Assembly (NCBI GenBank): GCA_043816185.1
Contig: JBDRIG010000002.1
Location: forward strand, 1 to 31,410
Direction of reading: 5' to 3'
DNA from: Elusimicrobiota bacterium
GTDB lineage: Bacteria > Elusimicrobiota > UBA8919
DNA length: 31,410 nt
Shown: positions 159 to 27,069 of the stretch, piece by piece
Layout: each line of letters begins with the position of its first letter
How positions within the stretch are numbered: the first letter of the stretch is position 1
Notes under the pieces: model-generated
What the model was told of the DNA's origin: nothing
Databases searched by the model: none
What the model saw: the letters and a program-made list of their open reading frames with translations, nothing else
Made by a program: the position numbers and the translations under genes

Positions 159-255
159 ATAGTATCGTGCTGTCTGGCGTAGGTTGATATTTAGCGAACT
201 TATTTCATTTCACAGAATTACCACTGCATCCTATCTCATGACATGGAGACCAACA

Positions 256-2479: not shown

Positions 2480-2514
2480 GTTACAGGTCTTCCGAATATT
2501 GTGAGGATAAAAAT

Positions 2515-2946
2515 ATGGGTTTATTGATTTATTCTTCTTATCAATTAAGAGTACTGATTGTGGAAGATGAAAAAAATATAGGCGAGTTGTATAAAGACAA
2601 ACTAATGGATTTGGGATACGAGGTTGATGTGGCAGAAACAGGACTTTCGGCAATTGATTATATGAAAAACACAAAACCAGATTTGGTTATATTAGATGTT
2701 AATTTGCCCGATATAAACGGTGTGAAAGTTTTACAGCAGTTAAAACATATATATCCAAATATGCCTGTGATAATGTACACAGCTTATGGTCAATTTGAAG
2801 AGTACTATGCAAAATTTACAGATAAAGAGATAGAATTTTACAGTTATCTTACAAAACCTGTCAAACTTGACAAACTTGTAATTGAGGTGAAAAAAGCAAT
2901 CGGCGAACCTTGTTTTCGCGAGCAGAATGAGAAAAAGGTTGAATAA
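2515..2946 (+). CDS. Single-domain (CheY-like) response regulator
   Basis: VLIVEDE, ILDVNLP, MYTAY, LTKPV motifs; exact start uncertain. Confidence 0.88.
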   Translation: MGLLIYSSYQLRVLIVEDEKNIGELYKDKLMDLGYEVDVAETGLSAIDYMKNTKPDLVILDVNLPDINGVKVLQQLKHIYPNMPVIMYTAYGQFEEYYAKFTDKEIEFYSYLTKPVKLDKLVIEVKKAIGEPCFREQNEKKVE

Positions 2947-2949
2947 AAA

Positions 2950-4317
2950 ATGAACAAAATATTAATTATAGACGATGATGAAAATATTCAGATATCACTA
3001 ACAAATCTCTTCAAAATTAAAAACTATAATCCTAAGGTTGTTGGAACCGCCCAATCTGCGTTAGAGGAATTAAGAAAGTGTAGTTATGATGTTGTATTTT
3101 TGGATATTCATCTTCCAGATAAAGATGGACTAACCTGTCTTGAAAAGATAAAGGAAATAGATGAGTATATTCCAGTTGTGATTCTAACTGCATACGGCGA
3201 TGTAAGGCAAGCAGTAAAAGCAATGAAATTAGGTGCATTTGATTATTTAACTAAACCAGTTCCTAACGAAGAACTTATTTTAAGTGTTGAAAGGGTGCTT
3301 AGAGAAAGATCTATTCAGAGGGAGTTGTATTATTTAAGACAAAAAAATACTGTTTTAGATAAGGAATTTATCTGCGAAAGTGATGTAATGAAAAAATTGG
3401 TTGCCGACGCAACGAAGATTGCTAAAACCAATTACAATGTTTTAATAACTGGCGAAACTGGTGTTGGCAAGGAAGTTCTGGCTAATATTATCTACAAAAA
3501 TTCTGATCGTAAAGATAATGTTTTTGTTGTAATTGATTGTGGCGCTTTTCCAGAAACATTGATTGCATCAGAATTATTTGGTTATGAAAAAGGAGCATTT
3601 ACAGATGCTACCAAAAAAACATTAGGAAAAGTAGAATTGGCTGATGGGGGAACACTTTTTCTTGATGAAATTTCCAATTTATCGTTAGATTTACAAGCAA
3701 AGTTTTTGCGTGTTATAGAACGAAGAAACTTTTATCGAGTAGGAGGTACATCTTTAATAGAAGTAGATGTGAGATTTATTACCGCCAGCAATGTTTCGTT
3801 TGAAGAATTGGTGAGCAAAAATAAATTTCGTAAAGATCTATACTATAGATTAAATGAATACAAAATTGTGGTTCCTCCTTTAAGAGAACGTTTTGACGAT
3901 ATAATTCCACTAGCCAAATATTTTTTACAAAAATCGAGCCATGAATTAGGTAGATCCGCAAAAGAATTATCAAAAGAAGCAGAAAAATTATTATTAAACT
4001 ATCAATGGCCCGGCAACGTTAGAGAGTTGTATAATGTAATAAAAATAGTTTCTTTTTTTGCTAAAGAAATTATTGAGGTAGAAGATTTACAGAAAGTGCT
4101 ATCTACGGGACTGAATAATTCTGCTGCTTTTGGAGACAACTTGGACAATCAACAAGAATTAGAAAGTCTTAATTTAAATCAGAATACTGAAAATATTGAA
4201 AAAAAAATAATTGAACGTGCGCTACAAAAGACAGGTTATAATAAATACAAGACGGCAGATTTGATAGGTATAAGTCGTAAGACGTTGTACGATAAGATAA
4301 AAAAATACGGTATTTAG
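2950..4317 (+). CDS. Sigma-54-dependent NtrC/AtoC-family response regulator (REC-AAA+-Fis HTH)
   Basis: N-terminal REC; Walker A GETGVGKE; ELFGYEKGAFTDA; GGTLFLDEI; FRKDLYYRL; WPGNVREL; C-terminal TADLIGISRKTLYDK. Confidence 0.95.
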   Translation: MNKILIIDDDENIQISLTNLFKIKNYNPKVVGTAQSALEELRKCSYDVVFLDIHLPDKDGLTCLEKIKEIDEYIPVVILTAYGDVRQAVKAMKLGAFDYLTKPVPNEELILSVERVLRERSIQRELYYLRQKNTVLDKEFICESDVMKKLVADATKIAKTNYNVLITGETGVGKEVLANIIYKNSDRKDNVFVVIDCGAFPETLIASELFGYEKGAFTDATKKTLGKVELADGGTLFLDEISNLSLDLQAKFLRVIERRNFYRVGGTSLIEVDVRFITASNVSFEELVSKNKFRKDLYYRLNEYKIVVPPLRERFDDIIPLAKYFLQKSSHELGRSAKELSKEAEKLLLNYQWPGNVRELYNVIKIVSFFAKEIIEVEDLQKVLSTGLNNSAAFGDNLDNQQELESLNLNQNTENIEKKIIERALQKTGYNKYKTADLIGISRKTLYDKIKKYGI

Positions 4318-4492
4318 CACTACTTCGTTAGGTTCAGTTCGTCATTCAGACTGTGTCGCAATGAGCTAAAAAGTTGCATTTTTATAGAAGATAGTAACTG
4401 ATGGTAAAATATGGTACTGCAATCCAACACTAGATGGTAAAAGATGGATTGCGACACAGTCTGATTGCGAGGGCGAAGCCCGAAGCAATCTC
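4318..4492 (+). repeat. REP-like palindromic repeat (GTCATTGCGAG...GAAGCAATCTC type) interrupted by a MITE-like element
   Basis: 4318-4346 matches 20893-20921 at 25/29 nt; the repeat resumes at 4464 as attgcgagggcgaagcccgaagcaatctc. Confidence 0.75.
4347..4463. mobile_element. MITE-like element copy 1 (117 bp)
   Basis: Perfect 16-bp terminal inverted repeats CAGACTGTGTCGCAAT (4347-4362) / ATTGCGACACAGTCTG (4448-4463), flanked by direct ATT. Confidence 0.8.
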
Positions 4493-4619
4493 GTCTTCAA
4501 CATATGGGATTACCACGGTGGTTGGCACAAGCCGACGAGTTTAGTGAATTTATTTTGCTTTGTGGGATTGCCAATGCTGTTCTTTAATCTCTTAGCCCTA
4601 TTTTAGTGGAGGTACAAAA

Positions 4620-6113
4620 ATGAGTATAAAATTAAAATTCACATTTTTTATTTTTGCTGTTCTGATTTTGGTTGTTATGACAATTTCTTTAGGTATATTT
4701 TTTGTACAAAGAGATTTGTTAGAAGAACAATTTAGTCGTAATCGCGAAAAAATATTTAAGGATTTCTGTTATAGTTGTAACGAAGCATTGATTGTTAAAG
4801 ATGAATTGTTGGTATTGAATATATTAAAATCACTCATGGAAACCCATAAACCTCAAATTGTTTATGCTGGGTATATTTCTCCAATTAATGTGAAACTTTT
4901 TAAGGCACGAGACGAAAGTGGAGAATTTAGTTTTGCACATAGAATATCCCCTGTCAAAAAACAAGCAGTAGAAATTTTTACTTCCTCAGACAAAGAGGAA
5001 ATTTATGAATTTAGCCAGTTGCTTGAAGAAAAAGATTCATGCTTAGGCACAATAAAAATGGGTTTTTCGCAGAGTTATCTCGATAGTCAGGTTAAGCAAT
5101 CAACATTATCGGTTACAAAAAAAATATTTAACATATCTATTCTATCATTAATTATAAGTTTAATTCTTGCCTATATCTTGGCGATTTATTTAGTTCACCC
5201 AATAAAAAAACTTTCTGCTGTAGCGTTAGAGTTAGGTTCGGGAAACTTAAATGCTAGAACTGAAATTGAAAGAAATGATGAAGTTGGGCAACTTGCTAAA
5301 ACATTTGATGAAATGGCAGAAAAGTTAAAACAATTAGATGAGCTAAAAGATAGTTTTGTTTCCAGTGTTTCGCACGAGTTGCGTTCTCCACTTTCTGCTA
5401 TCGATGGATATGTCGATTATTTAAATGATGGTGTCGAGAAATTGCCATTAGAAAAGCAAAAAAAAGCATTAACAATAATTAAAGATTCTATAGGTCGTCT
5501 GACGGTTTTTATAAATAACATACTTGATATTGCAAAAATAAAGGCCGGTAAATTCGATATGCATAAAATACCTATTAAAGCAAAAGATACAATCAGTGAA
5601 ATCGTTTCACTTTTTGAACAAATGGTGATTAAACAACAAAAAACGATTGAGATTGTAGTTCAAGAAAATCTACCTTTAATATGTGCAGACCATGAAAAAA
5701 TAAAGCAAGTTATCATTAATCTTTTGGGTAATGCGATGAAATTTACAGAAACTGGTGCCAAAATAACAGTTGCTGCAAATTTAGTAACTGCGAAAGCATT
5801 AACCACTTACAAGTTAAAAAAAGAAGACGAAAACTCGATTAAAGACATTACGGGCAATTTTGTTGAATTCAGGGTTTCTGATACTGGTTATGGTATGCCC
5901 GAAAATGAATTAGATAAAATATTTGACAAATTTTATCAAGTTGGTAGCACGACACCTAAAAAACCTAAAGGAACTGGGCTTGGACTTTCAATTGCCGCCG
6001 AAATAGTTAAACTTCACGGTGGCGTAATAGGGGTTGAGAGTGAATTAAGTAAGGGTTCAACATTTAAGTTTGTAATTCCTGTGTACAAAATGCCAGAACG
6101 GACTGCATCGTAA
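4620..6113 (+). CDS. Membrane sensor histidine kinase (2 TM, HAMP, HisKA, HATPase_c)
   Basis: Two hydrophobic segments; HAMP (PIKKL..DEVGQLAKTFDEM); H-box SVSHELRSPL; N-box NLLGNAMKF; DTGYG; GTGLGL. Confidence 0.95.
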   Translation: MSIKLKFTFFIFAVLILVVMTISLGIFFVQRDLLEEQFSRNREKIFKDFCYSCNEALIVKDELLVLNILKSLMETHKPQIVYAGYISPINVKLFKARDESGEFSFAHRISPVKKQAVEIFTSSDKEEIYEFSQLLEEKDSCLGTIKMGFSQSYLDSQVKQSTLSVTKKIFNISILSLIISLILAYILAIYLVHPIKKLSAVALELGSGNLNARTEIERNDEVGQLAKTFDEMAEKLKQLDELKDSFVSSVSHELRSPLSAIDGYVDYLNDGVEKLPLEKQKKALTIIKDSIGRLTVFINNILDIAKIKAGKFDMHKIPIKAKDTISEIVSLFEQMVIKQQKTIEIVVQENLPLICADHEKIKQVIINLLGNAMKFTETGAKITVAANLVTAKALTTYKLKKEDENSIKDITGNFVEFRVSDTGYGMPENELDKIFDKFYQVGSTTPKKPKGTGLGLSIAAEIVKLHGGVIGVESELSKGSTFKFVIPVYKMPERTAS

Positions 6114-6175
6114 GAAGGCAATATTGTGAGTTTATTAAATCCATCTTTGGCATATGGCAATCTCAAACAAAAAAA

Positions 6176-7108
6176 ATGATAAAAAATAAAAAAGTTTTAG
6201 TAATTGAAGATGACTACTCAATCCGGGAAATGTTGAAGGATATTCTTATTGAGACAGGTTTTGATGTTGTAAGTGCAACCAATGGTAGAGAGGGAATTAA
6301 AGAAATATATCAGGAATGTCCTGATGTTGTTCTACTTGATTGTATGATGCCTGAAATGAATGGTTATGAGGTTGTTGAGACTATAAGAAAAGATCAACTG
6401 TTTGTTAATTTGCCGATGATTATGTTAACAGCAAATTCATCAGAAGCGGATCAAGTAAAAGGTATCCAACTCGGTGTTGATGACTATATGACTAAACCAT
6501 TTAGTAGACAAATACTGATTGCAAAAATAAAAACAATGCTAAATAGGAAGGAAATCAGTATAAACGCAAACCCACTTACACAGTTGCCTGGAAATGTCCT
6601 TATCTACAAGGAAGTGCACGAAAGATTAAACGGAAAAATACCATTCGCTTTTTTTTATATTGATTTAGCAAATTTCAAAAGTTATAATGATTATTATGGA
6701 TTTCAAAAAGGTGATGAGATAATAAAACATACCGCCGATATCTTAGTTTCCACAGTAAAAAAATATGGCGAAAATAATGATTTTGTGGGTCATATAGGTG
6801 GCGACGATTTTGTTGTTATATCGACTTCGGAAAAGTATAGAGAAATTGCAGAAAAAATAATAGAACAATTCGATAATTCTATCAAGAATTTTTATAGTCA
6901 AAAGGATTATGAGAATAGTTATATTGTTACTACGGATAGACAAGATAATTTACAAAAATTTTTTATAATGACAATCGCTATTGCTTGCGTTTCCACATTA
7001 AAAACTAAGATTATACATTATGGCCAGCTAAGCGAAATTGCCGTACAATTAAAAAAATATGCAAAACAATTTAATAAAAGTGCTTTTATGGAGGAGCAAA
7101 GAAAATGA
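6176..7108 (+). CDS. Response regulator with GGDEF (diguanylate cyclase-like) domain
   Basis: REC (LLDCMMP, KPF) then NPLTQLPGN, IDLANFKSYNDYYGFQKGD and HIGGDDF. Confidence 0.9.
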   Translation: MIKNKKVLVIEDDYSIREMLKDILIETGFDVVSATNGREGIKEIYQECPDVVLLDCMMPEMNGYEVVETIRKDQLFVNLPMIMLTANSSEADQVKGIQLGVDDYMTKPFSRQILIAKIKTMLNRKEISINANPLTQLPGNVLIYKEVHERLNGKIPFAFFYIDLANFKSYNDYYGFQKGDEIIKHTADILVSTVKKYGENNDFVGHIGGDDFVVISTSEKYREIAEKIIEQFDNSIKNFYSQKDYENSYIVTTDRQDNLQKFFIMTIAIACVSTLKTKIIHYGQLSEIAVQLKKYAKQFNKSAFMEEQRK

Positions 7109-7791
7109 TGAGAGAATATAAAATATTAGCAATTGATGACGATGAAAACATTTTGTCTTTAGTATGTGACATATTAGAGAAGGAAGATTATATTGTTATT
7201 ACTGCTACCAATACGGATGATGGTTATAAAAAAGCAATAAGTTCACATCCAGATTTGATAATGTTAGATATAAAGATGCCTAAAATTGGTGGGATTGAAT
7301 TGTGCAGATTGCTTAGACAAGATCCAATAACAAAAATAATACCGATAATTATGCTTACCGTAGAATCAATGGAAGTAGATAAAATTATAGGGTTTGGAAT
7401 AGGTGCAGATGATTATATTACAAAACCTTTTAGTTCAAAAGAGTTTGTAGCAAGAGTTCGTTCTTTACTTAGGAGAAGTGTGTGTTCCAAAGAATCGCCA
7501 GAAGTAATAAAATCTGACAATCTTGAGATAAATACTATCTCAAAAACAGTTAAGATAAATAAAAAGGAGATCCATCTAAGGCCAAAAGAGTTTGACTTAT
7601 TGATTTTTTTTATAAGGAAACACAATATGGTATTGACAAGGCAACAATTGTTAGAGAGTGTATTTGGTTATAATGTTCCAGTACCTTCAAGGACGGTTGA
7701 TACCCACGTAAAGAATTTACGTCATAAATTAGGTTCTTTTGGTAAAAAAATAAAAACCATATTTGGGTTCGGATTTAAGTTTGTTCCATAA
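7105..7791 (+). CDS. OmpR/PhoB-family DNA-binding response regulator
   Basis: REC (MLDIKMP, GADDYITKPF) plus winged helix (LRPKEFDLL, RTVDTHVKNLRHKL, TIFGFGFKF); ATGA overlap with previous gene. Confidence 0.95.
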   Translation: MMREYKILAIDDDENILSLVCDILEKEDYIVITATNTDDGYKKAISSHPDLIMLDIKMPKIGGIELCRLLRQDPITKIIPIIMLTVESMEVDKIIGFGIGADDYITKPFSSKEFVARVRSLLRRSVCSKESPEVIKSDNLEINTISKTVKINKKEIHLRPKEFDLLIFFIRKHNMVLTRQQLLESVFGYNVPVPSRTVDTHVKNLRHKLGSFGKKIKTIFGFGFKFVP

Positions 7792-14129: not shown

Positions 14130-14188
14130 TGAAGATCGTCGTATTCGCCAAAATATAGAATTAATATATTACTGTCGAATGCACAGAT

Positions 14189-14288
14189 GAGACTGTGTCA
14201 CAACTCCACTTTTGGTTGTTGCGAGAGTCGATGGCACATCGGGTCGTGGCAATCTCAAGTTGGGGAATTTCTATTGTGATACAGTCTC
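14189..14288. mobile_element. MITE-like element copy 2 (100 bp)
   Basis: Ends GAGACTGTGTCACAA / TTGTGATACAGTCTC (14/15 inverted match); flanked by direct AGAT (14185-14188 and 14289-14292). Confidence 0.8.
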
Positions 14289-14375
14289 AGATGTTGGTTA
14301 TGTAATATTTACTCGAGTAGTAAATTGTAAACATATGTTTTCTTAATCTCTAAATAACAATTCTTGAAAAAATAC

Positions 14376-14404
14376 TTGACAAAAAAAATAATTTTTGATA
14401 TAAA
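14376..14404 (+). promoter_or_regulatory. Sigma-70-type promoter for the FliFG-MotAB locus
   Basis: TTGACA (14376-14381), 17-bp spacer, TATAAA (14399-14404) with TG at the extended -10 position; AAGGAG before ATG 14458. Confidence 0.7.
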
Positions 14405-14457: not shown

Positions 14458-16362
14458 ATGCTAAAGTTTTGCAATCGCTTATTATTCTTGTGTGTTGTAT
14501 TGTTTACATTTGTTGTATTTAATTTAGCGACGGATTTATGTGCGCAATTCTCATCACCAGAGCAGGATGTAGAACTTACTCGCAGGGAAAATGCTGTTTC
14601 TGAAAAAATTCAATCGCAACTCGAAGAACTCTTAGGTAATTATTATAAAAAGGAATCGTTTGTGATTGATGTAAAGTCAAAGCTCGAGAGAATACCTGTA
14701 AGAGAAAAGTCTCCAAAAGCGAAAAAAGTAGAAAAAGAAGAGAAAGAAGAAATTGAGTTGCCAGGTCTACCCGTAGTTTTACCACCAGAAATTGTTGACG
14801 AAGGAGATGAAAAAGAAAAATTTGACATTGATCAATGGATATTTTCTGACAAAATTAGAATTAAATATCTGGAAATATCGATTTTATTGGACGAGAAAAT
14901 TTTTTTAAATAAAGACGAAGATTTAGATTTTATAAAAATGGTTTCAAGAGCAAGAGCAAAGCTCGATGAAAGTAGGGGAGATAGCTTAATTATAAAAGCA
15001 ATACCTTTTCCACAGCCCATTGAAACATTAAATACAACAGCAGTAAAAGAATCGACAGAACCAACAAAACTCAAAGAATCCAAAAATCCGTTACTTACGC
15101 TGCGTCCATATCTATTGTATGGTTGTATAGTTCTAATGTTGTTACTCATCGCAATTGTTTTATTGCAAGTAATAAATATCTCTAAGATGAAAAAAGTATT
15201 GCAAGATGTGTTTTTGCAACTTGGGCTTCCACAAGCATCAAAGACCCAAACTGATAAAATTCAATTATCTGAAAAACAATCACAAAAAATACCTGTTGTT
15301 AATAAATTAGAAACACTAAACGGGCAAAAGAACGGGCAAAAAATTTTTTTTAATGAGTTGAAGCAATTTGTGGTTAATGCAATTATCGGTAATCCACAAT
15401 TGGCGAGTGAGATATTTAAGAAGTGGGTTGACACAAATAAAGACGATGGCGTGCATCAATTTGCTGAATTATTGAAGGCAACTGACCCACAACTTGTAAA
15501 AATGCTTTCCGAATATATTACCGATCAAAATATTATATCAAGCGTTGAGCATACTATAAATCAAGATGTTCCAATTGATGAAAAAGTCGTTGTAGAAATT
15601 TTTAAAAGGTTTAGGGAATCCTTCAGAGAAAAAGAGACATCAAAATCGGCAAAAACTAAATTTAACGAAGAGGAAAGTATGTTTCAATTTTTGAAACAGA
15701 TTACGCCTGAACAAATATTCCATATTATCAAAGATGAACCCGTTACCATTATTGCAATAGTATTAGCACAATTATCGCCAGAAGTTGCAAATTCTTTGCT
15801 TGTTGGTTTACCGATAGAAAAACAATCGAGAATCCCTGTTGAAATGGCTAAACTTAAAAAAGTACCCATATCTGCATATAGGGAGATAGCAGACAAACTT
15901 GCAAAAAAAGCACTGGAAGTTGAAAAAATTAAATATGTGGCAACCGATGGCGTTGAAGCATTAATAAATATGTTGGAACAATCGTCGCCAGAAAAAGAAC
16001 AGGAAATACTTACATCTATATTAGAATATGATATTATGATTGCAAAGGAACTTCGCAAAATTTATATTACATTTGAAGAAATTTGTAAACTACCTGATAG
16101 ATTTCTATCAGAACTGTTCCGAGAATTTAATCGTGACGTAGTGATAAAAGCATTAGTTGGATCGTCCATGAAAATAAGAGAGAAAGTTTTGAATAACCTA
16201 CCACCACGGATAAAAATAGTTGTAGCTGACGAATTAAAAATAATTGAAGAATCTGGTGAAGTGCAGACAGAAGAAATTCAAAAGGCTCAAAAAACGATAA
16301 CCCAAAAAATTCGTGAGTTGGCAAAAACTGGTAAGATAGACCTGAAAAAACTCATGAGTTAA
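14458..16362 (+). CDS. fliG: FliF(RBM3-TM-C tail)-FliG fusion protein, putative rotor ring
   Basis: N-terminal hydrophobic signal/TM; FliF-like IKYLEISILLD..LDESRGDSLIIKAIPF; TM at about aa 218-240; FliF-tail-like NPQLASEIFKKW; FliG-M-like FQFLK..EPVTIIAIVLAQL; FliG-C-like ITFEEICKLPDR..KALVGSS..REKVLNNLPPR..AQKTITQKIRELAKTGKI. Confidence 0.82.
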   Translation: MLKFCNRLLFLCVVLFTFVVFNLATDLCAQFSSPEQDVELTRRENAVSEKIQSQLEELLGNYYKKESFVIDVKSKLERIPVREKSPKAKKVEKEEKEEIELPGLPVVLPPEIVDEGDEKEKFDIDQWIFSDKIRIKYLEISILLDEKIFLNKDEDLDFIKMVSRARAKLDESRGDSLIIKAIPFPQPIETLNTTAVKESTEPTKLKESKNPLLTLRPYLLYGCIVLMLLLIAIVLLQVINISKMKKVLQDVFLQLGLPQASKTQTDKIQLSEKQSQKIPVVNKLETLNGQKNGQKIFFNELKQFVVNAIIGNPQLASEIFKKWVDTNKDDGVHQFAELLKATDPQLVKMLSEYITDQNIISSVEHTINQDVPIDEKVVVEIFKRFRESFREKETSKSAKTKFNEEESMFQFLKQITPEQIFHIIKDEPVTIIAIVLAQLSPEVANSLLVGLPIEKQSRIPVEMAKLKKVPISAYREIADKLAKKALEVEKIKYVATDGVEALINMLEQSSPEKEQEILTSILEYDIMIAKELRKIYITFEEICKLPDRFLSELFREFNRDVVIKALVGSSMKIREKVLNNLPPRIKIVVADELKIIEESGEVQTEEIQKAQKTITQKIRELAKTGKIDLKKLMS

Positions 16363-16412: not shown

Positions 16413-17486
16413 ATGAATCATTTAAAAAAAATATTTGCAGTTTTTTTGTTAATGAGTGTTGTTTTGTGCGAAACAACATTTGCGAGGAATCTAGTTAATG
16501 ATGATGAAATTATTGAAGCGTTAGAAACGTCTTTAGCCACCTTACCTACCAAAATTACTAGACTTAAATCTGAAGTAAGACGAATTAATTTTTATTCTAT
16601 ACGAGTAGATAGAGAGGATATTTCACAACAACTCCTTGAACAAATTCAAGGTAAGATAGAGTCAGCATTTCTTAAAATAGGAAGACCAATTTTAGTATTT
16701 ACACCAGAAATAAAACCAATGAAAATTATCTCAACAGAGGAGGGTATCAATTTTGCATCTGGATTTCGGTCGACAAGTGAGATAAAAGAGATTTCAGAAA
16801 AACTTAAATTAGATGGATTTTTGAAGGGAGAACTGATTTTAACTGGGAATAATATGTTCTTGAACTTGCGAATATTTGAGTCCAACTCTATGGCGGTTGT
16901 CTGGAGCGAAGAATTTTCAACCGTAACAGTGCCAGATTCAAAATTTACGGGTATTGATTTTGGATTTGGTGTTGCAGGATTACTTCTCTCAGAAACGCCA
17001 ACAAGTATAGGTGCCGACATTCCACAATACGCAGATTATTATATCGCCGATATAAGAATTACCCAGAAAACACCTGTTGGTGAAAAAATGAGGTTTGTAC
17101 TAAACGGTGGAGTTCTTTGTCTCAACGACGGCATAAAATCATCGCTTTCAACTATTGTTTCTTCCGAAAAAAATTTTGGGTCGTTTAGTTTCATTCTTAG
17201 AACTGGAATAAGAGTTTCCATTATTCCTATACTTATGCAGGAAGCGGGTCCAAAAAGAGACTGGTTGGCAACAGAAATAACCTTTGGTAGAATTTTTGGT
17301 GCTGGAACTAATGGTTTAAGCACATTAGGAATAAAAGCGGAATCAAATATTGCAAAAGATATTTCCATTACCTTCGGCGTTTCGTTTATCCCAATAACAA
17401 AAGTTTCCTTTGCAACTGGTAAGGAAGTAAATGTAGGGGGTTTTTCATATGAAATATCGCTCTTGCGGTTTAATTTTATGCCTTAG
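16413..17486 (+). CDS. Exported hypothetical protein; putative CsgG/FlgO/LpoB-like alpha/beta domain plus C-terminal outer-membrane beta-barrel-like region
   Basis: Signal peptide ending TFA; LKLDGFLKGEL..LNLRIFESNSMAVVWS; Gly-rich alternating strands ending ..EISLLRFNFMP; AGGAG RBS. Confidence 0.65.
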   Translation: MNHLKKIFAVFLLMSVVLCETTFARNLVNDDEIIEALETSLATLPTKITRLKSEVRRINFYSIRVDREDISQQLLEQIQGKIESAFLKIGRPILVFTPEIKPMKIISTEEGINFASGFRSTSEIKEISEKLKLDGFLKGELILTGNNMFLNLRIFESNSMAVVWSEEFSTVTVPDSKFTGIDFGFGVAGLLLSETPTSIGADIPQYADYYIADIRITQKTPVGEKMRFVLNGGVLCLNDGIKSSLSTIVSSEKNFGSFSFILRTGIRVSIIPILMQEAGPKRDWLATEITFGRIFGAGTNGLSTLGIKAESNIAKDISITFGVSFIPITKVSFATGKEVNVGGFSYEISLLRFNFMP

Positions 17487-18426
17487 TAGTATTGCGTTTT
17501 TTACATTGGTTTATGCCGAAGAACAACCCAAAACAGGTACGGCTGCAATAAAAGAATTACCATCAAAAGAATTGTCGTCTGACCAAAAAAATTCTAACTA
17601 TCAAGACACATTAGAAATTTTAAAGAAATTAACGGAACAATATAAATTTCTCTCTACTAAAATTGATATACTCGCTACTAATTATAAAAGCCTGTGTGAA
17701 GATTTTTCTGTAATTGTAAGTTCTTTTACAGATTTGTCGTATCAGGAAAATACAACAAGATCGTTAGTAGCACTGTCTGAAAGTTACACCAATTTGAACA
17801 GTCGTATTGCTAAACTTTCTAAAAAAGTTGATGAGCTTTCATATGCTCAAAGTGACAGTAGAAATAAAGAATTAGAATCGAGCGGCGAGAAAAATGATGG
17901 GGAATCTGACGACAAAAAATCAAAATATGTAGCAAGAAAAAGTGGTCCGATATCACAATATGTTAAAATAAAATCTAAAGATGACGGGCGAGAAATAGAA
18001 TTATGTCTTGATCCTGCATACGTAGATATGAATATTGATTTCACTCGGAAAACACCAAATACAACGACAAGACAGGAAGAAACAAAAGACGTGGAAGATA
18101 TAGTAAGTGATGTTGTAAAATCTGTAGAACGTTCGTTACAGGAAAAATTACCGAAAAAACAACAAGAAACAACTAATCAGCAAGCTATCGGTAAACTACA
18201 TAAAGCACAAAAACTTTATTATGCGAAAAAATATAATGCTGCAATGGATGCAGTACAGCTGTCTTTAGAAAATCAGGAAACAGCAGTTGGTTATGCGCTG
18301 AAAGGTTCGCTATATTTTACGCTTGGCGATGTTGATTCGGCGATAATATGTTGGGAATCTGCATTACAATTAGATCCAACAATGGAAGAAGTAAAAACAG
18401 CAATTTATAAATTTAAGAGGCGATAA
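17449..18426 (+). CDS. Exported coiled-coil plus C-terminal TPR protein
   Basis: Signal-like N-terminus ending VYA-EE; heptad-rich segment; AQKLYYAKKYNAAM..GYALKGSLYFTLGDVDSAIICWESALQLDP TPR pattern. Confidence 0.8.
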   Translation: MKYRSCGLILCLSSIAFFTLVYAEEQPKTGTAAIKELPSKELSSDQKNSNYQDTLEILKKLTEQYKFLSTKIDILATNYKSLCEDFSVIVSSFTDLSYQENTTRSLVALSESYTNLNSRIAKLSKKVDELSYAQSDSRNKELESSGEKNDGESDDKKSKYVARKSGPISQYVKIKSKDDGREIELCLDPAYVDMNIDFTRKTPNTTTRQEETKDVEDIVSDVVKSVERSLQEKLPKKQQETTNQQAIGKLHKAQKLYYAKKYNAAMDAVQLSLENQETAVGYALKGSLYFTLGDVDSAIICWESALQLDPTMEEVKTAIYKFKRR

Positions 18427-18670
18427 ATTAGTTTTTGTTTGCTTCTTGTTTGTTGTGGCTTGTTTGCTGTGTACGGTTCGAAATTAGATAATTACAAGAT
18501 TAAAAAGAGGTTTATCTGTGCGGTTTTAGTCTTTAACCTGTCTCGCTACAAAGTAAGTTCACATAATTTTCATATAGTCATAATTTAATTATCTGTCGTC
18601 AGTATCTGTCGTCGAGCAGGCTTACCTGATTGGTTTAGTCTGGCGGGTTAGTTTTTAGAGGTTAAAAAAT

Positions 18671-19492
18671 ATGTCAACAACACTACTTGGTATAGTTATG
18701 GGATTAGGAATGACGATTTTTGCTATCATCGGTGTATCGCAACAGGATTCAAGTTCAATTGGAAGTCTTGTAAATATGTATTTAAATATGCCGTCTTTTT
18801 TAATGGTTTTTGGTGGAACAATTGCATCAACATTAGTAGCACATCCGTTTTCACATTTAGTTCGTGGATTTACGGCATTTTTTGTTGTATTTACTCGCAA
18901 AGAATTCGATTGGATAAAAGCAATTAATACAGTTTGTGAATTTAGTCAGGTATATATACAAAAAGGAATTCCGGGATTAGAAGAAAAAAATAAAACACAT
19001 AAAACAAAATCTCTTGTCAAAGACGGTATAAGTATGTATGTAAACGGATATAAACTCGAAGAAGTAAAAGAATTTTTGGAAACAACCATTGAGAGAAGAT
19101 ATGATCGTGAAATGATTGATTATTACGTTTTTAGAACAATGGGGTCGGCAGCACCAGCGTTTGGTATGGCTGGAACGCTTGTTGGCTTGATATTTATGCT
19201 TAGGGTAATGAGCGAATCGCCAGATAAGATGGGGCCATTTTTAGCAATTGCACTAATTACTACATTTTATGGTCTGATATTAGCACATCTTGTATTTAAT
19301 CCGATAGGAAATAAACTCAAACAACAGGCAGCGATAAATGTACGGGTTGGTACGATGGAAATAGAGGGAATTGTACATATTTTGAAAAAACAGCACCCTG
19401 TCTATATTAAAGATCAGTTGTCAAGTTATATCCCACCGAAAGAACGATTACAACTTTTCAAAGAGGAAAAAAATCCCTCAATAAAAAAATAA
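18671..19492 (+). CDS. motA: MotA/PomA-family stator A subunit
   Basis: NMPSFLMVFGGT; GIPGLE; APAFGMAGTLVGLI; MGPFLAIALITTFYG; FNPIGNKL. Confidence 0.93.
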   Translation: MSTTLLGIVMGLGMTIFAIIGVSQQDSSSIGSLVNMYLNMPSFLMVFGGTIASTLVAHPFSHLVRGFTAFFVVFTRKEFDWIKAINTVCEFSQVYIQKGIPGLEEKNKTHKTKSLVKDGISMYVNGYKLEEVKEFLETTIERRYDREMIDYYVFRTMGSAAPAFGMAGTLVGLIFMLRVMSESPDKMGPFLAIALITTFYGLILAHLVFNPIGNKLKQQAAINVRVGTMEIEGIVHILKKQHPVYIKDQLSSYIPPKERLQLFKEEKNPSIKK

Positions 19493-19497
19493 CCTAA

Positions 19498-20196
19498 ATG
19501 GCACTACCAAAATTTGTTGATCTATATGATGAAGAAGAAAGTAACAATCAGTGGCTTCTCTCCTATTCGGATGTGGTCACGTTGCTGCTTTGTTTTTTTG
19601 TAGTTTTAGTCTCGTTTTCATCTTTGGATTTAGTTAAAGTAGAACTTTTGACTCAGCATTTTACAAAAACTAAAAAAATGACCTTAAAAGACCTTCAGCA
19701 AAAAATTCAGGAATTTGTTGATTTTGAAAAACTACAGAGCGATATTAAGGTTAATTTAACATCGAGAGGGGTAGAGATAAATTTTAAAGATAAACTTTTA
19801 TTTGATTTAGGCGATGCTAAACTTAAAGAAATAGCATCTCCTATATTAACGAAAATATCAAAATTGCTAAATTATCAAGAAATTGCACAGAGAAGAATTT
19901 CTATAGAGGGTCATACCGATAAACTACCAATAAAAAGTAAAATATATCCATCTAACTGGGAATTATCGTCTGCACGAGCAGCAAGCGTAGTAAAATTTTT
20001 TATTGATCAGGGCTTAAATAGTAGAAGATTTGAGATATCGGGCTATGCAGATAATTTACCGTTAAAGATTCAAACGGATAGAATTTTGGGACAACCAGAA
20101 AATAGACGTGTTGTAGTAGTAATTACTCCAGAGTCATACTTAATAAAAATGGTGCGTAAAGAAATATCACTATCTGCAAACAAAACTCCTCAGTGA
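19498..20196 (+). CDS. motB: MotB-family stator B subunit with OmpA-like peptidoglycan-binding domain
   Basis: WLLSYSDVVTLLLCFFVVL with the essential Asp; IEGHTD; PSNWELSSARA; NRRV. Confidence 0.95.
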   Translation: MALPKFVDLYDEEESNNQWLLSYSDVVTLLLCFFVVLVSFSSLDLVKVELLTQHFTKTKKMTLKDLQQKIQEFVDFEKLQSDIKVNLTSRGVEINFKDKLLFDLGDAKLKEIASPILTKISKLLNYQEIAQRRISIEGHTDKLPIKSKIYPSNWELSSARAASVVKFFIDQGLNSRRFEISGYADNLPLKIQTDRILGQPENRRVVVVITPESYLIKMVRKEISLSANKTPQ

Positions 20197-20974: not shown

Positions 20975-23185
20975 TCAAAAACCACCCTCGGCATCAAGTC
21001 CGATTGATTGAGGTATAAGTACTGGTTGTGTTGTGGTTTCTTTGGATGGCGTCAAAATTGTCGGTAAAAGATTAATATCGGTTAACGATTGAAACGTTGT
21101 TTCATCTTCAACTTTTTTAACTTCTCTTTGCGAAACAGTACTTTCGCCAATTGAAAATTCTTCTGGCTCCGTCCCACTTAAAAATGCTTCTAAGTACGTT
21201 CCTTTTGGATTTCCAATCGCTAAAAGTCCTGTTTGTGGGTCAATTTTTGCATAAGTAATATTTGAAGGCATTGGAAAACTCACAACTGGTTTTTGAGACA
21301 AAGATGCTTTCATAAACTCTGTCCAGATAGGGCAAGCGATTCGCCCGCCTGTCATTTTTTTACCAAGTGTTCTATGGTCGTCATAGCCAACCCATACACC
21401 ACATACAAGTTGTGGAGTATAGCCGACAAACCACATATCTTGGCAATCATTTGTTGTCCCTGTTTTTCCAGCAGCCTGTCTTTTTAATTGTTTCGCATAA
21501 ATACCTGTTCCATGCTCAATAACACCACGCATCAAGTTTGTCATTAAAAATGCCGTCTGTGCAGATATCACATCTTTTTCTTCAGGAAAAAATTCTTCTA
21601 AAATTCTACCTTTATTATCAACAACTTTTATAATTGAATATGGGGTTGTTTTTATGCCAGAGTTTGCAAGACAACCAAAAGCAGAAACCATTTCTTTTAA
21701 TGTAACATCCGACGAGCCGAGTGCTAAAGAGATTGTTTCGGTAAGAGGCGATTCGATTCCAAGTTTTTTTGCATATGCTGCAACGGTGATTGGTTTAATT
21801 TTATCTGTTACTTTGATTGCGCATATATTTAATGAATGTTCCAATGCTTTTCTTAAAAAAACTGACCCGTGAAATTTTTTCGAATAATTTTGAGGTTGCC
21901 ACAGAACTCGCTCATTTGGTTTATTGTTTTCAATTGCCTGCTTATCCTTTTCTAATAATTCAGTAATAAAATTTTTGTCCGTGACATTGGAAAAATCAGT
22001 TGTATTTGATAAAAGTTCCCAATCACGGCCCGTGTTATAATATGTTACAGGTGAATCGTCGACAATTGAAGTTGCGGTAAAACCATTTTCAATTGCAGCG
22101 GTGTAAACAAAAACCTTAAACGCACTACCTGGCTGTCTTTTCGCTTGAAATACTCTATTAAATTGACTTGTTTGAAAACTTCTTCCGCCGACTAATGCCC
22201 GAATTTCACCTGTTTTTACATCAAGACACAAAAGGGCACCTTCAACAGTATATGTTGATTTTGAAAGTTGATCAAATTCTACGAGATGTTTTTCAAGAAT
22301 TTTTTCAGCAGATTCTTGAATTTTTTTATCAAGTGTCGTATAAATTTTTAATCCACCTTGAAACAATTGTGTTCCATATTTAGATTCAAGTGTTTGTCTG
22401 ATATTATCAATAAAATGAGGTGCTATTTTTGTAGCAATCTGTGGTGGTGAAAGAATAATATTTTTTTCTTTAGCCTCTTTTTTTTGCTCGTCAGTAATAA
22501 AGCCAACAGCGTGCATTCTTTCCAGAACAACTGCCCTTCTTTGAATTGCCTTTTCGGGATTTTTAAAAGGTGAATATACCGATGGTGCCTTCGGAAGTCC
22601 TGCTAAAAGCGCACATTCTTCAAGCGTTAACTCGGTTACATTTTTTCCAAAATAAACTTTTGCCGCAGTTGCAACACCATATGCACCATTTCCAAAATAA
22701 ATCTGATTTAGATATATTTCAAGAATTTCATATTTTGAGTAGTCGCGCTCTAACTGAATTGCAAGAATTACCTCTTTTATTTTTCTGGCAAGAGTTTTTT
22801 TTCGCGACAAAAAAATCACTTTTGAAAGTTGCTGGGTAATTGTAGAGCCACCTTCTATTACTTTGCCTGCTTTAAGATTTGAAACAAAGGCACCAAGTAT
22901 TCTATATGGATCAACTCCCCAGTGCTTAAAAAAACGGGTGTCTTCAATTGAAATCATTGCATTTATCATATCTTTTGGAATTTGAAAAAGTGGGACAGCA
23001 GTTCTTTTTTCCGTAAATAATTCAGCGATTAATTCTTCATTTACGTCATAAATTTTTGTAGTTAAAGACGGTGTATAGTTTATTAATTGAGTTGGATCTG
23101 GGATATCGCCAAGATATTTTATTAATCGTTTAGTAAAAGCAAAAAATATCGCAATTCCAACTACTAAAAAAATCCATTTTTTCAT
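20975..23185 (-). CDS. mrcA: Class A penicillin-binding protein (PBP1A family)
   Basis: Transglycosylase EDTRFFKHWG, GGSTITQQ, RKIKE, YLNQIYFG; transpeptidase SAFK, SLN, KTGT. Confidence 0.95.
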   Translation of the reverse strand: MKKWIFLVVGIAIFFAFTKRLIKYLGDIPDPTQLINYTPSLTTKIYDVNEELIAELFTEKRTAVPLFQIPKDMINAMISIEDTRFFKHWGVDPYRILGAFVSNLKAGKVIEGGSTITQQLSKVIFLSRKKTLARKIKEVILAIQLERDYSKYEILEIYLNQIYFGNGAYGVATAAKVYFGKNVTELTLEECALLAGLPKAPSVYSPFKNPEKAIQRRAVVLERMHAVGFITDEQKKEAKEKNIILSPPQIATKIAPHFIDNIRQTLESKYGTQLFQGGLKIYTTLDKKIQESAEKILEKHLVEFDQLSKSTYTVEGALLCLDVKTGEIRALVGGRSFQTSQFNRVFQAKRQPGSAFKVFVYTAAIENGFTATSIVDDSPVTYYNTGRDWELLSNTTDFSNVTDKNFITELLEKDKQAIENNKPNERVLWQPQNYSKKFHGSVFLRKALEHSLNICAIKVTDKIKPITVAAYAKKLGIESPLTETISLALGSSDVTLKEMVSAFGCLANSGIKTTPYSIIKVVDNKGRILEEFFPEEKDVISAQTAFLMTNLMRGVIEHGTGIYAKQLKRQAAGKTGTTNDCQDMWFVGYTPQLVCGVWVGYDDHRTLGKKMTGGRIACPIWTEFMKASLSQKPVVSFPMPSNITYAKIDPQTGLLAIGNPKGTYLEAFLSGTEPEEFSIGESTVSQREVKKVEDETTFQSLTDINLLPTILTPSKETTTQPVLIPQSIGLDAEGGF

Positions 23186-25132: not shown

Positions 25133-25822
25133 ATGACATTAAAAGAATTCAAAAGTAGATTGACAGAAATTGAGAAATTATGTTTTGTGCAATCAAAGCG
25201 AAAAGGTAGCACGGGAATTGGGTACACTCTTGAAATGCTTTTGAATATTAAAGAAAACAACATTAAACTCCCCGACCTTGGAGAGATTGAGTTGAAATCA
25301 AAACGAAAAAATGTTTTCACATTTGTCACAATGTTCACTTTCAACAGTGGAGTTTGGAAAATCCATCAATCAGATGTTATCAAAACTTACGGCTACAAAG
25401 ACAAGCAGGAACGAAAGGCATTGAAATGTTTTGTTCGTGTTACACCAAATGCACAAGGACTTTATTTGAAAGTAACAAAGCAGTCGCTTCAAATGTATCA
25501 CACCGACAAAACTTTGATTGCTGAATGGAACGCAACAAATTTATTGCAATACTTTTCAGCAAAAGTACCCTCACTCATTTTAGTTCTTGCGGACACAAGA
25601 AAAAATGAGGATAATAAAGAAGAATTTCATTACAACGAAGCATACTTGCTGAAAACTCCAAGCAAAACGGGACTGCTAAAATTGATAGAACAAGGTTTCA
25701 TGGTTGTAGATTTGCGAATGCATTTAAAGTCATCGGGTGCAGTTAGAAATAGAGGAACGGCATTTCGTGTTGAAGAAAAAAATCTTATTCAATGTTTTGC
25801 CGAAAAAATAAAGTTGCTATGA
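25133..25822 (+). CDS. MvaI/BcnI-family type II restriction endonuclease
   Basis: GSTGIGYTLEMLLNIKENN..PDLGEIELKSKR..TMFT (PD-(D/E)xK), ending VDLRMH..RNRGTAFR; adjacent methyltransferase. Confidence 0.82.
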   Translation: MTLKEFKSRLTEIEKLCFVQSKRKGSTGIGYTLEMLLNIKENNIKLPDLGEIELKSKRKNVFTFVTMFTFNSGVWKIHQSDVIKTYGYKDKQERKALKCFVRVTPNAQGLYLKVTKQSLQMYHTDKTLIAEWNATNLLQYFSAKVPSLILVLADTRKNEDNKEEFHYNEAYLLKTPSKTGLLKLIEQGFMVVDLRMHLKSSGAVRNRGTAFRVEEKNLIQCFAEKIKLL

Positions 25823-27069
25823 AAAAATATACAGACAATTCATGGGATTTCAGTACAGCGGACACAAAAACATTCACTCACTGTTTTCACAATTATCCAG
25901 CAATGATGATACCTCAAATTGCAGGAAGATTGATTGACTGTTTAGGAAAGAAGAATGATGTTTTATTTGACCCATATTGCGGAACAGGAACTTCAATTGT
26001 TGAAGCAAACTTGCGAGGTATAAGTGGAATTGCAACGGACATAAATCCTTTAGCCCGACTAATCACAAAAGCAAAGTCAACTATAATTCCATTACAAGTT
26101 TTAGATTTTTATTTAAAGGACTTCAACGATTTTATTTTTCAATACAAATTCGGAATTAAAAGTGAAACAATAGAGATTCCAGATTTTCCAAATATTGATT
26201 TTTGGTTTACTCCGCAGGTGAAACAACATTTAGCAAGGATTAAAATCTACATTGATAAAATTGAAGATAAAAATGTGATTGCCTTTTTCAAAGTTGCGTT
26301 TAGTGAAACTATTAGAGAAAGTTCACTGACAAAAAATAGTGAGTTCAAATTAGTGCGAATGAAAGATAGGCAACTAAGAAAATTTTCTCCAGATGTTTTC
26401 ACAATTTTTGAAAGAAAAATTTTCAGAAATAGAAATGGTTTGAAAAATTTTATTGAGCAAGTTAAAACACATAAGAAAAATCAGATTTGTGACTTTAATA
26501 CAATTAACGACATCCCAAAGAAAATTATCGAGGAAGGAAGCATTGATTTGATTGTTACTTCGCCACCATATGGAGATAGCAAAACTACTGTTGCATATGG
26601 ACAATTTTCGCGACTTTCGAATCAGTGGTTAGGACTTAAAGATGCAAGTCAGGTTGACAATAATTTAATGGGAGGCAGACGGGCAAAGAGTTATGAAAAG
26701 TTCGATGTGAAAGAATTGGACAAACAAATTGAGAAAATAGGGAACAAAGATGAGAAGCGAGTATTGGATGTAATTAGTTTTTATCACGACTACAAAACTT
26801 CAATTTCAAATGTTGCAAAGACAATTAAACCAGGAGGTAATATTGCATATGTTGTCGGAAACAGACGAGTGAAGGATGAGGAACTTCCAACAGATATTGT
26901 TACTGCAAAGTTTTTTGAGCAGCACAATTTTACACATATAGAAACAATCATTCGCAACATTCCGAGCAAGCGGATGCCAAAAGAAAACAGTCCGACAAAT
27001 ATTGCTGGTGCAAAAAACACCACTATGAATTGCGAGTATATTGTCGTGTTGAAAAAGCCGAACTGCTAA
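25819..27069 (+). CDS. N4-cytosine DNA methyltransferase, alpha class (M.MvaI-like), cognate to the endonuclease
   Basis: HNYPAMMIP; motif I DPYCGTGT before motif IV TSPPY; ATGA overlap with endonuclease stop. Confidence 0.88.
   Translation: MKKYTDNSWDFSTADTKTFTHCFHNYPAMMIPQIAGRLIDCLGKKNDVLFDPYCGTGTSIVEANLRGISGIATDINPLARLITKAKSTIIPLQVLDFYLKDFNDFIFQYKFGIKSETIEIPDFPNIDFWFTPQVKQHLARIKIYIDKIEDKNVIAFFKVAFSETIRESSLTKNSEFKLVRMKDRQLRKFSPDVFTIFERKIFRNRNGLKNFIEQVKTHKKNQICDFNTINDIPKKIIEEGSIDLIVTSPPYGDSKTTVAYGQFSRLSNQWLGLKDASQVDNNLMGGRRAKSYEKFDVKELDKQIEKIGNKDEKRVLDVISFYHDYKTSISNVAKTIKPGGNIAYVVGNRRVKDEELPTDIVTAKFFEQHNFTHIETIIRNIPSKRMPKENSPTNIAGAKNTTMNCEYIVVLKKPNC

Follow-up and report, generated by a model that had tools for sequence, protein, structure and literature searches.

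We report a conserved five-gene operon, independent of the flagellum, which contains the torque core of the flagellar motor together with two new partner proteins. It lies in a 31,410-nucleotide stretch of DNA, hereafter the window, from an Elusimicrobiota bacterium (GenBank assembly GCA_043816185.1, contig JBDRIG010000002.1, positions 1 to 31,410 of the forward strand). The operon consists of a natural FliF-FliG fusion gene that keeps only the third ring-building motif (RBM3) of FliF, a second open reading frame (ORF2), a gene for an exported tetratricopeptide repeat (TPR) protein, motA and motB. An earlier note on this DNA had dealt with the fusion gene by itself; the informative unit is the whole operon, which is new as a system and whose function is predicted from sequence. 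We rate as slightly better than even the prediction that the five genes encode a self-contained motor, powered by ions and derived from the flagellar torque core, that works on an outer-membrane partner.

The RBM3-only FliF-FliG fusion

The fusion gene occupies positions 14458..16362 on the + strand as a single frame of 634 codons (634 amino acids) with no internal stop, and both these coordinates and the peptides quoted in the earlier note were confirmed in the sequence. The protein starts with a hydrophobic segment (amino acids 1-29; 14458..14544, +), recognised from a hydropathy peak at residues 8-26 and from the N-termini of relatives, many of which end Ala|Gln; position 30 is Gln in 56% of 162 proteins. 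Judged by eye from these sequences, the segment is probably a cleaved Sec signal peptide in place of the first transmembrane helix (TM1) of FliF. The RBM3 unit with a shortened beta-collar comes next (amino acids 37-185; 14566..15012, +) and was assigned from fold and profile matches. The fusion was modelled with AlphaFold2 from 26 sequences, with a mean predicted local distance difference test score (pLDDT) of 76 and a predicted template modelling score (pTM) of 0.32, at which the domain arrangement is unreliable. Residues ~37-185 of the model follow the alpha-beta-beta-alpha-beta order of a ring-building motif, with a low-confidence insert at 82-128, and Foldseek ranked FliG first and FliF RBM3 rings second as matches to the model. 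By exhaustive structure alignment, RBM3 of the fusion matched the Vibrio MS ring 8z5v with a Z score of 15.2 (root-mean-square deviation 1.5 A over 98 residues) and Salmonella FliF 6scn with Z 14.5, while other ring-motif proteins among the 48,161 chains trailed far behind (PrgK Z 8.8, SpoIIIAG Z 8.1). The FliF fold of this unit bears out the earlier placing of an RBM3-like unit after the N-terminal segment, against the possibility that this half had no structural similarity to FliF; SpoIIIAG, which had been offered as an analogue, is a poor one.

Sequence profiles were also compared. The family RBM3 profile aligned to FliF of flagellated Elusimicrobiota with an hhalign probability of 96.4%, and 40 of 50 family RBM3 segments matched Pfam YscJ_FliF_C (PF08345) at E<=0.1 (best 1.6e-6), the 634-amino acid fusion itself giving a faint match at 132-184 (E 0.06). 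The RGD end of RBM3 is kept in the family. RBM1 and RBM2 are missing, as the earlier note had stated: ~36 residues lie upstream of RBM3, and PF01514, the family for RBM1/RBM2, was not found in the source genome or in any of nine Elusimicrobiota carriers, against nine of nine flagellated controls. The available excerpt of PMC11739650 describes RBM2 as the seat of FliP/FliR, RBM3 alone as forming the S-ring and collar in Salmonella, and a flexible collar loop as holding the rod; rod-binding loops are placed at FliF 309-331 in an excerpt of PMC11528121. With RBM2, the holder of FliP/FliR, missing and FlhA and FliP not found in the genome, the proposal that the fusion offers a type III export gate no place to sit was upheld. 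A 1:1, one-chain ring is plausible because RBM3 alone forms the S-ring and collar in the Salmonella work, and we consider it very probable that the fusion forms a ring. Flagellar FliF rings have 33-35 subunits.

What had been described as a short charged and Pro-rich insert is present and is better defined as a shortened beta-collar region carrying the motif LPGLP (amino acids 101-105; 14758..14772, +), which was located by conservation and by alignment between the collar strands of FliF 9yh6. As judged from the aligned sequences, this collar loop is the most conserved motif of the N-terminal half (P102 in 97% and G103 in 98% of 162 proteins), and a hydrophobic-Pro-Gly motif occurs in that half of 49 of 52 fusions, covering all subtypes. 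By analogy with the FliF collar, LPGLP is a candidate grip for a driven partner. One transmembrane helix follows RBM3 (amino acids ~218-241; 15109..15180, +), as predicted, with hydropathy (3.0 at 223-241) and a model helix (211-254) in agreement. The stretch that resembles the C-terminal helix of FliF (amino acids 312-323, P-x9-W; 15391..15426, +) is the weakest assignment in the fusion, being weakly supported by its position and pattern. P313 and W323 occur in 79% and 75% of the 162 proteins and stand in register with the FliF tail in 8z4d, an engineered FliF-FliG fusion from Vibrio, in an alignment whose 3.9 bits are non-significant, and the profile probability against Elusimicrobiota FliF tails is below 1%, which is not significant.

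From here the chain runs without interruption into FliG, and all three FliG domains were found in order by Pfam and profile searches, in agreement with the earlier note. FliG-N lies at amino acids ~330-392 (15445..15633, +); a profile of residues 294-400 had T. maritima FliG-N (5tdy_B) as its top PDB match (E 0.0038), and nine of 36 family segments matched Pfam FliG_N at E<=0.5, the best at 1.3e-4. FliG-M (amino acids ~408-489; 15679..15924, +) is recognised by Pfam at 417-489 (9e-14) and has EPVT at the EHPQ position. FliG-C (amino acids 521-629; 16018..16344, +) is recognised by Pfam over the same residues (1e-22), and its torque helix carries R584 and D591/E592, the equivalents of R281 and D288/D289. 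The TIGR00207 model scored the fusion at 100 bits, below its cut-off of 227. The EHPQ motif of FliG binds FliM. It was found in none of 52 fusions, against 16 of 20 flagellar FliG, and this loss fits the absence of FliM. A quick tree of the FliG M-C region, unrooted and with long branches, placed the 20 flagellar FliG on one side of a branch (Shimodaira-Hasegawa approximate likelihood ratio test, SH-aLRT, 90) and the 52 fusions on the other.

That the fusion is genuine is virtually certain. Among 34 non-self matches, 24 cover at least 83% of the query in one chain, those from Elusimicrobiota with 40-54% identity to it and those from Fibrobacterota and other groups with 24-26%; seven are ordinary FliG. 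When 1.84 billion representatives were searched with a profile, 306 matched at E<=1e-30, and of the best 150 of these, 135 are at least 550 amino acids long; the members that have names belong to Elusimicrobiota, Fibrobacterota, KSB1, Caldithrix, Balneolaceae and Rhodothermia. One homologue (P0005) is assigned by its source to Ca. Liberimonas magnetica, whose genome is among those treated in 10.1101/2022.07.08.499144. Look-alikes found with a language model reach Bdellovibrionota and others, which we treat as a lead only. The earlier note had asked whether an assembly artefact had joined two genes; independent assemblies, including those of the isolates Gracilimonas tropica DSM 19535 and Balneola sp. 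EhC07, yield the same one-chain protein, which refutes both an artefact and a private frameshift and leaves this explanation a negligible probability.

Several further observations were made on the wider family. A homologue of 736 amino acids (P0016) has an N-terminal helix-turn-helix extension, which may be a mis-called start or a fusion. Two records titled Bifidobacteriales (L074, L121) carry the fusion on short contigs with Fibrobacterota-type sequence and are probably binning contamination. A FliG-like match was found in 166 of 401 Elusimicrobiota genomes, mostly in frames of 450-750 codons and at most four per genome, with FlhA in only nine; among the Elusimicrobiota loci L038-L050, those examined have more distant fusions beside motAB, an FlbD-like gene, TPR barrels and very long proteins.

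The five-gene operon and its carriers

The four genes that follow the fusion lie on the same (+) strand. ORF2 (16413..17486; 357 amino acids) encodes a signal peptide, a periplasmic domain resembling TolB-N, LpoB and FlgO (residues 35-172) and an 8-stranded outer-membrane barrel (177-357); its model (pLDDT 82) gave structure matches to OmpW (Z 14.3), OprF (Z 14.1) and LpoB (Z 11.3). The exported TPR protein (17449..18426; 325 amino acids) has a coiled-coil-like N-terminus, which is lipoprotein-like in Balneolaceae and Fibrobacterota, a conserved beta motif and a C-terminal TPR module. motA (18671..19492) codes for a flagellar-type stator A subunit of 273 amino acids, whose best NCBIfam matches are MotP/MotA/PomA at 1e-40 to 1e-44 versus 1e-3 for TolQ, all below the curated cut-offs, and whose best PDB matches are flagellar MotA. 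The product of motB (19498..20196; 232 amino acids) has an ion-binding Asp25, a plug and an OmpA-like peptidoglycan-binding domain. MotB D25 and MotA T169 and T198 are each present in 61 of 61 operons. By residue rules for the coupling ion, MotA Thr169/Thr197/Thr198 are PomA-like and MotB Val36 is as in B. subtilis MotB, this last position being variable in relatives. The TPR gene and motA are 244 bases apart (18427-18670), where most relative loci have at most 60 bases or an overlap, and within this gap are an 11-base direct repeat (18590, 18603) as well as short inverted repeats.

The order fusion-ORF2-TPR-motA-motB was found in all seven Elusimicrobiota relatives fetched, an eighth, cut by a contig end, having been left out. 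Among 64 GTDB loci, which were collected with a single pattern favouring Balneolaceae and Fibrobacterota and do not represent the full range of the family, 53 have all five genes in order and nine end at a contig edge; in the two that deviate, ORF2/TPR is broken up (L094) or there is no adjacent motAB (L108). The flanking genes differ between loci. Ratios of nonsynonymous to synonymous substitution (dN/dS) were 0.019-0.129 for the fusion in nine of nine pairs, several of which have dS >1, and 0.01-0.22 for the other four genes where dS was unsaturated; by this measure the operon is under purifying selection.

Rotor and stator were compared at the charged positions of their interface, for which an excerpt of PMC12505986 gives the pairs R90-D288/D289 and E98-R281. 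The MotA equivalents of R90 and E98 were set by alignment to 8ucs and by the 8-residue spacing. MotA of the source operon keeps E104 at the E98 site and has Ile96 at the R90 site. On the FliG side, R584 (equivalent to R281) is present in 61 of 61 operons and is Arg or Lys in 95% of 162 proteins, and at least one acidic torque-helix site (equivalent to D288/D289) is present in 49 of 61 operons, with none in 12 Fibrobacterota. The pattern follows lineage. In Elusimicrobiota, MotA has an acidic residue at 104 in 8/8 operons and K/R96 in 0/8. Fibrobacterota likewise keep acidic 104 (12/12) and R584, with K/R96 in 0/12 and both FliG acidic sites in 0/12. Balneolaceae-type operons have K/R96 and FliG acidic 592 in 41/41 each and MotA acidic 104 in only 7/41. 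This lineage-wise covariation suggests that the rotor and stator of the operon are partners, and that the ring is driven by the operon's own MotAB is, in our judgement, probable.

The source genome (1.44 Mb in 112 contigs, 94% complete) gave no match to FlhA, FliP, FliM, FliMN_C, rod/hook families, flagellin, RBM1/2 or CheW, for which control genomes did match, and the injectisome features SctV, SctR gate and SctJ RBM1-2 were not found there either. Across 401 Elusimicrobiota genomes, nine have this fusion subfamily and nine others have FlhA, with no overlap. Among 50 non-Elusimicrobiota carriers tested, taken from the 64 loci, FlhA is present in 29; the 21 FlhA-negative carriers include seven single-chromosome assemblies. 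Gracilimonas tropica carries the fusion without FlhA. FliMN_C/FliM/N and rod/hook families were found in 0/18 FlhA-negative carriers versus 2/2 flagellated controls, and those FlhA-positive carriers that were checked encode an ordinary FliG in addition to the fusion. Among 151 genomes of Balneolaceae, FlhA occurs in 24 of 56 fusion carriers and 38 of 95 non-carriers, so that the fusion is about equally frequent with and without FlhA, a descriptive count in which kin are non-independent and completeness is not given, and which left out one weak match to flagellar FliF and one sub-threshold FlhA match.

These counts bear on whether the operon is a flagellar leftover or accessory, either a decaying relic or an alternative rotor alongside flagellar genes. 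All core parts are flagellar homologues and 29 of the 50 carriers have FlhA, as such an origin would have it; the purifying selection, the synteny kept intact across phyla, the seven single-chromosome assemblies that carry the fusion without FlhA, FliM/N or rod, the separate FliG of flagellated carriers and the split of the 20 flagellar FliG from the 52 fusions in the tree all oppose it. We take this explanation to be largely refuted and very unlikely.

Proposed action and outer-membrane partners

In the mechanism we propose, RBM3 would likely let the fusion polymerise into an open ring in the membrane, beneath which each subunit contributes one FliG, and MotA5B2 units, anchored to peptidoglycan by MotB, would likely pass H+ or Na+ and push the FliG torque helix. 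Since FliM/N and CheY are absent, there would be no chemotactic switch and the drive is probably one-way. The LPGLP collar loop, sited where flagellar FliF grips the rod, may grip either the TPR protein or the barrel's periplasmic domain; force would thereby be carried across the periplasm, and the operon would act as an energiser like TonB, Tol-Pal or GldLM but by way of a geared ring. The TPR protein and the barrel appear to be the best candidates for the gripped partner. Where the barrel is exchanged, the rotor retains its TPR module. That all steps hold jointly, up to the passing of force to an outer-membrane client, we regard as close to an even chance.

Such a change of partner is seen in Balneolaceae, where a paralogue has no ORF2 and lies 3' of a gene for a ~1000-amino acid protein with the same TPR module in its last 80 residues (hhalign 98.4%, 34% identity). 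In a quick, unrooted tree this paralogue is nested inside the five-gene clade (support 96), and Gracilimonas tropica has the fibre-linked form in addition to the five-gene one. Going by this arrangement and by the barrels near the second fusion of the source genome (below), the outer-membrane partner can be swapped, with rotor, stator and TPR module retained. In the Balneolaceae loci L135-L140 the paralogous rotor/stator set is 3' of DUF4402 pilin-like, chaperone-like and ~1000-amino acid usher-like genes, and the one MotB tested, that of L136, has an extra SPOR domain. The usher-like and chaperone-like labels reflect size, layout and DUF4402 neighbours; the ~1000- and ~280-amino acid proteins of these loci have no usher or chaperone family match in Pfam, NCBIfam or PDB.

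The source genome also holds related genes outside the window. A second, shorter RBM3-FliG fusion of 459 amino acids (C93:12786-14165, L133) has as neighbours two MotB, PorP-like+TPR and PorV-like barrels, a LysM protein and Ig-repeat proteins with tails like those of the type IX secretion system (T9SS), and a second flagellar-type MotA (C24:10304-11068) is encoded just upstream of a 3409-amino acid giant open reading frame at a contig end. A weak SprA_N match (C112:38919-39293; 30.1 bits, cut-off 27) lies in a frame of 1746 codons, and GldM had no match in this genome. Possibly this frame belongs to a T9SS-like translocon that lacks the motor it usually has; the second rotor might serve this translocon.

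The paralogues raise the question of a surface-motility motor, which would turn or ratchet an outer-membrane complex and so move adhesins, or a non-flagellar fibre encoded elsewhere, in a gliding-like manner. The fibre operon of Balneolaceae and the source-genome paralogue with its PorP/PorV-like barrels, Ig-repeat proteins and weak SprA-like match speak for it, as do the links to gliding or twitching proposed for orphan Elusimicrobiota motAB/fliG (Uzun et al., excerpt of 10.1101/2022.07.08.499144). The five-gene form, on the other side, has no adjoining adhesin or fibre gene, the source genome has no CheW match, and Gracilimonas tropica, which has both forms, is listed as non-motile in Table 1 of PMC5167729, whose available part reports no gliding in Balneolaeota. 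We consider a surface-motility motor unlikely.

The stand-alone motor driving an outer-membrane partner, which we favour, has to be weighed against several points that count against it. It is a prediction from genes and modelled folds. The operon holds no rod, P-ring or L-ring gene, that is, no axle or bushing, so that the path of force over the peptidoglycan is unexplained, and LPGLP, though placed like the rod-binding loop of FliF, has no sequence match to Elusimicrobiota FliF at that spot. Basic and acidic MotA charges occur together in only 7 of 61 operons; with the canonical charge set incomplete in most lineages, torque may be weak or absent, and the charge pattern rests on three lineages and on alignment over a variable region. 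The gene absences in the source genome are qualified by an assembly that is fragmented (112 contigs) and 94% complete, and in the FlhA-positive carriers (29 of 50) the operon may have a side role at the flagellum.

Part of the same evidence would suit a stalled or non-rotating device, in which a ring tied to the outer membrane and stators tied to the wall form a sensor, with ion flow or stator loading signalling envelope strain or contact with a surface, or a tether that keeps both membranes under tension. Axle, bushing and filament genes are missing from the operon, each lineage lacks one of the two canonical charge pairs, the ORF2 fold is that of the envelope adaptors TolB-N and LpoB, and the non-motile listing of the carrier Gracilimonas tropica agrees with a static role. 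Against this, no signalling gene is conserved beside the operon, and a three-domain FliG, R584 and a flagellar-type MotA kept across phyla seem excessive for a static tether. A device of this kind is fairly unlikely.

A trans-envelope conduit in the style of SpoIIIAG or a secretion ring would use RBM3 as a channel scaffold, with MotAB gating or energising passage to the barrel. The loss of RBM1/2 would free the centre of the ring and the paralogue beside an usher-like gene suggests secretion, but the fold is far nearer FliF than SpoIIIAG (Z 15.2 vs 8.1) and the conserved neighbourhood includes no gene for an ATPase, a gate or a substrate. An 8-strand barrel of the OmpA/OmpW type is, moreover, too narrow for proteins. 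This makes a conduit improbable.

Extended to the whole family, our proposal of a stand-alone motor becomes a separate, old, widespread class of rotary machines in which a minimal gear of two parts, a single-chain ring rotor and MotAB, turns interchangeable outer-membrane clients (the 8-strand barrel, the usher-like pore, the PorP/PorV-like barrels) with no type III secretion, and its boldest form is a flagellar motor that predates export, with the FliF tail and FliG-N still in one chain. We give this extension even odds. The unrooted tree allows a pre-export origin, and trimming and fusion starting from a flagellum fit equally.

Known systems and the rest of the window

Compared with the flagellar torque core (FliF, FliG and MotA5B2/PomA5B2; 8z5v, 6scn, 8umd, 8ucs), the operon is alike in the RBM3 fold, the transmembrane helix, a putative FliF-tail/FliG-N junction, FliG-M and -C, the torque-helix Arg, the flagellar-type MotA, and the MotB Asp, plug and OmpA-like domain. 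It differs in having one chain in place of two, no RBM1/RBM2, a shorter collar, a probable signal peptide for TM1, the loss of EHPQ, and an extra barrel and TPR protein; searches for an export gate, rod, rings, hook, filament, FliM/N or CheW gave nothing. In Salmonella and Vibrio, FliF-FliG fusions made in the laboratory (excerpts of PMC6079021 and PMC10941966) also place both proteins in one ring-capable chain, and the distance from Trp to Gly at the junction is 8 residues here against 7 in the Salmonella full-frame fusion, the latter read off a primer. As described in those excerpts they keep RBM1-3 and belong to a whole flagellum, whereas the fusion described here is natural, RBM3-only and selected together with its own stator.

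ExbBD-TonB, TolQRA-TolB/Pal, AglRQS, GldLM and ZorAB share the logic of an inner-membrane ion motor serving an outer-membrane partner, and the periplasmic domain of ORF2 has the fold of TolB-N. To our knowledge, none of them pairs a FliG ring with its stator. They differ further in that the A subunit of the operon matches TolQ at 1e-3 versus MotP at 1e-44 and that the B subunit has a MotB plug and an OmpA domain, features called FIT-specific in the excerpt of PMC12505986, from which the GIT/FIT classes are taken. SpoIIIAG, which also has a single split RBM, and the SctJ/SctD rings share the ring-building motif, but with Z 8.1-8.8 against 14.5-15.2 for FliF, and they lack FliG and a stator. The operon thus stands outside the flagellum, injectisome, SpoIIIAG channels and Ton/Tol, and is most plausibly a geared energiser reaching from the inner to the outer membrane.

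Uzun et al. (10.1101/2022.07.08.499144) recorded orphan motAB, flbD and fliG homologues in non-flagellated Elusimicrobiota and called their role unclear; phylum and gene types are shared with our operon, and the accessible text makes no mention of a fusion, RBM3, operon, barrel or TPR. According to the accessible text of PMC12199754, which asks what use half a motor is and does not mention the word 'fusion', 11% of non-motile species have a rotor protein and lack a filament; the available parts of PMC1636346 and PMC13277936 have nothing on an RBM3-FliG system. In open-access full text, subscription papers being mostly outside this scope, neither a natural FliF-FliG fusion with RBM3 only nor the five-gene operon was found described, and the possibility of an earlier report of a natural fusion in Chlorobium gained no support.

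FliG and the MS ring have so far been treated as specific to the flagellum. The conserved operon is a concrete, testable answer to the question of what half a motor is for, as posed in the excerpt of PMC12199754, and it accounts for many genes of 600-700 amino acids in Elusimicrobiota, Balneolaceae and Fibrobacterota that are annotated as flagellar 'FliG'. If it turns, no natural pair of rotor and stator would be simpler, as it has a single rotor protein and needs neither switch nor export gate; it would be a ready system for reconstituting torque generation, and flagellar-type stators would have a place outside flagella. The operon is also relevant to the origin of the flagellar motor, and a cultured carrier exists in Gracilimonas tropica DSM 19535.

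Around the operon, Rfam gave no matches in the window, and a promoter and terminator scan was not above chance (26 promoter-like elements against 27.0 expected, and four terminator-like against 3.0). Upstream of the fusion, TTGAAA-17-AATAAT at 14364-14392, TTGACA-17-TATAAA at 14376-14404 and AAGGAG at ~14443 were seen, the second by eye. Between ppdK and the fusion, an inverted repeat at 14183-14294 with 21-base arms, 86% complementary and 70 bases apart, resembles the repetitive extragenic palindromic (REP) type.

Downstream and facing the operon is a gene for a PBP1A-type transglycosylase/transpeptidase (20975-23185, - strand). A link between it and the LpoB-like fold of ORF2 was considered and set aside, since the gene is on the opposite strand and none of seven relatives, compared by open reading frame starts and lengths, has such a neighbour. 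The run of response-regulator genes at positions 184-7791, named from their translations only, comprises two with three receiver-like repeats, an NtrC-like gene, a histidine kinase, a receiver-GGDEF-like gene and an OmpR-like gene; no such run was seen next to the operon in relatives. At 25133-27069, adjoining endonuclease-like and methyltransferase-like genes, also named from translations only, are probably a restriction-modification pair.

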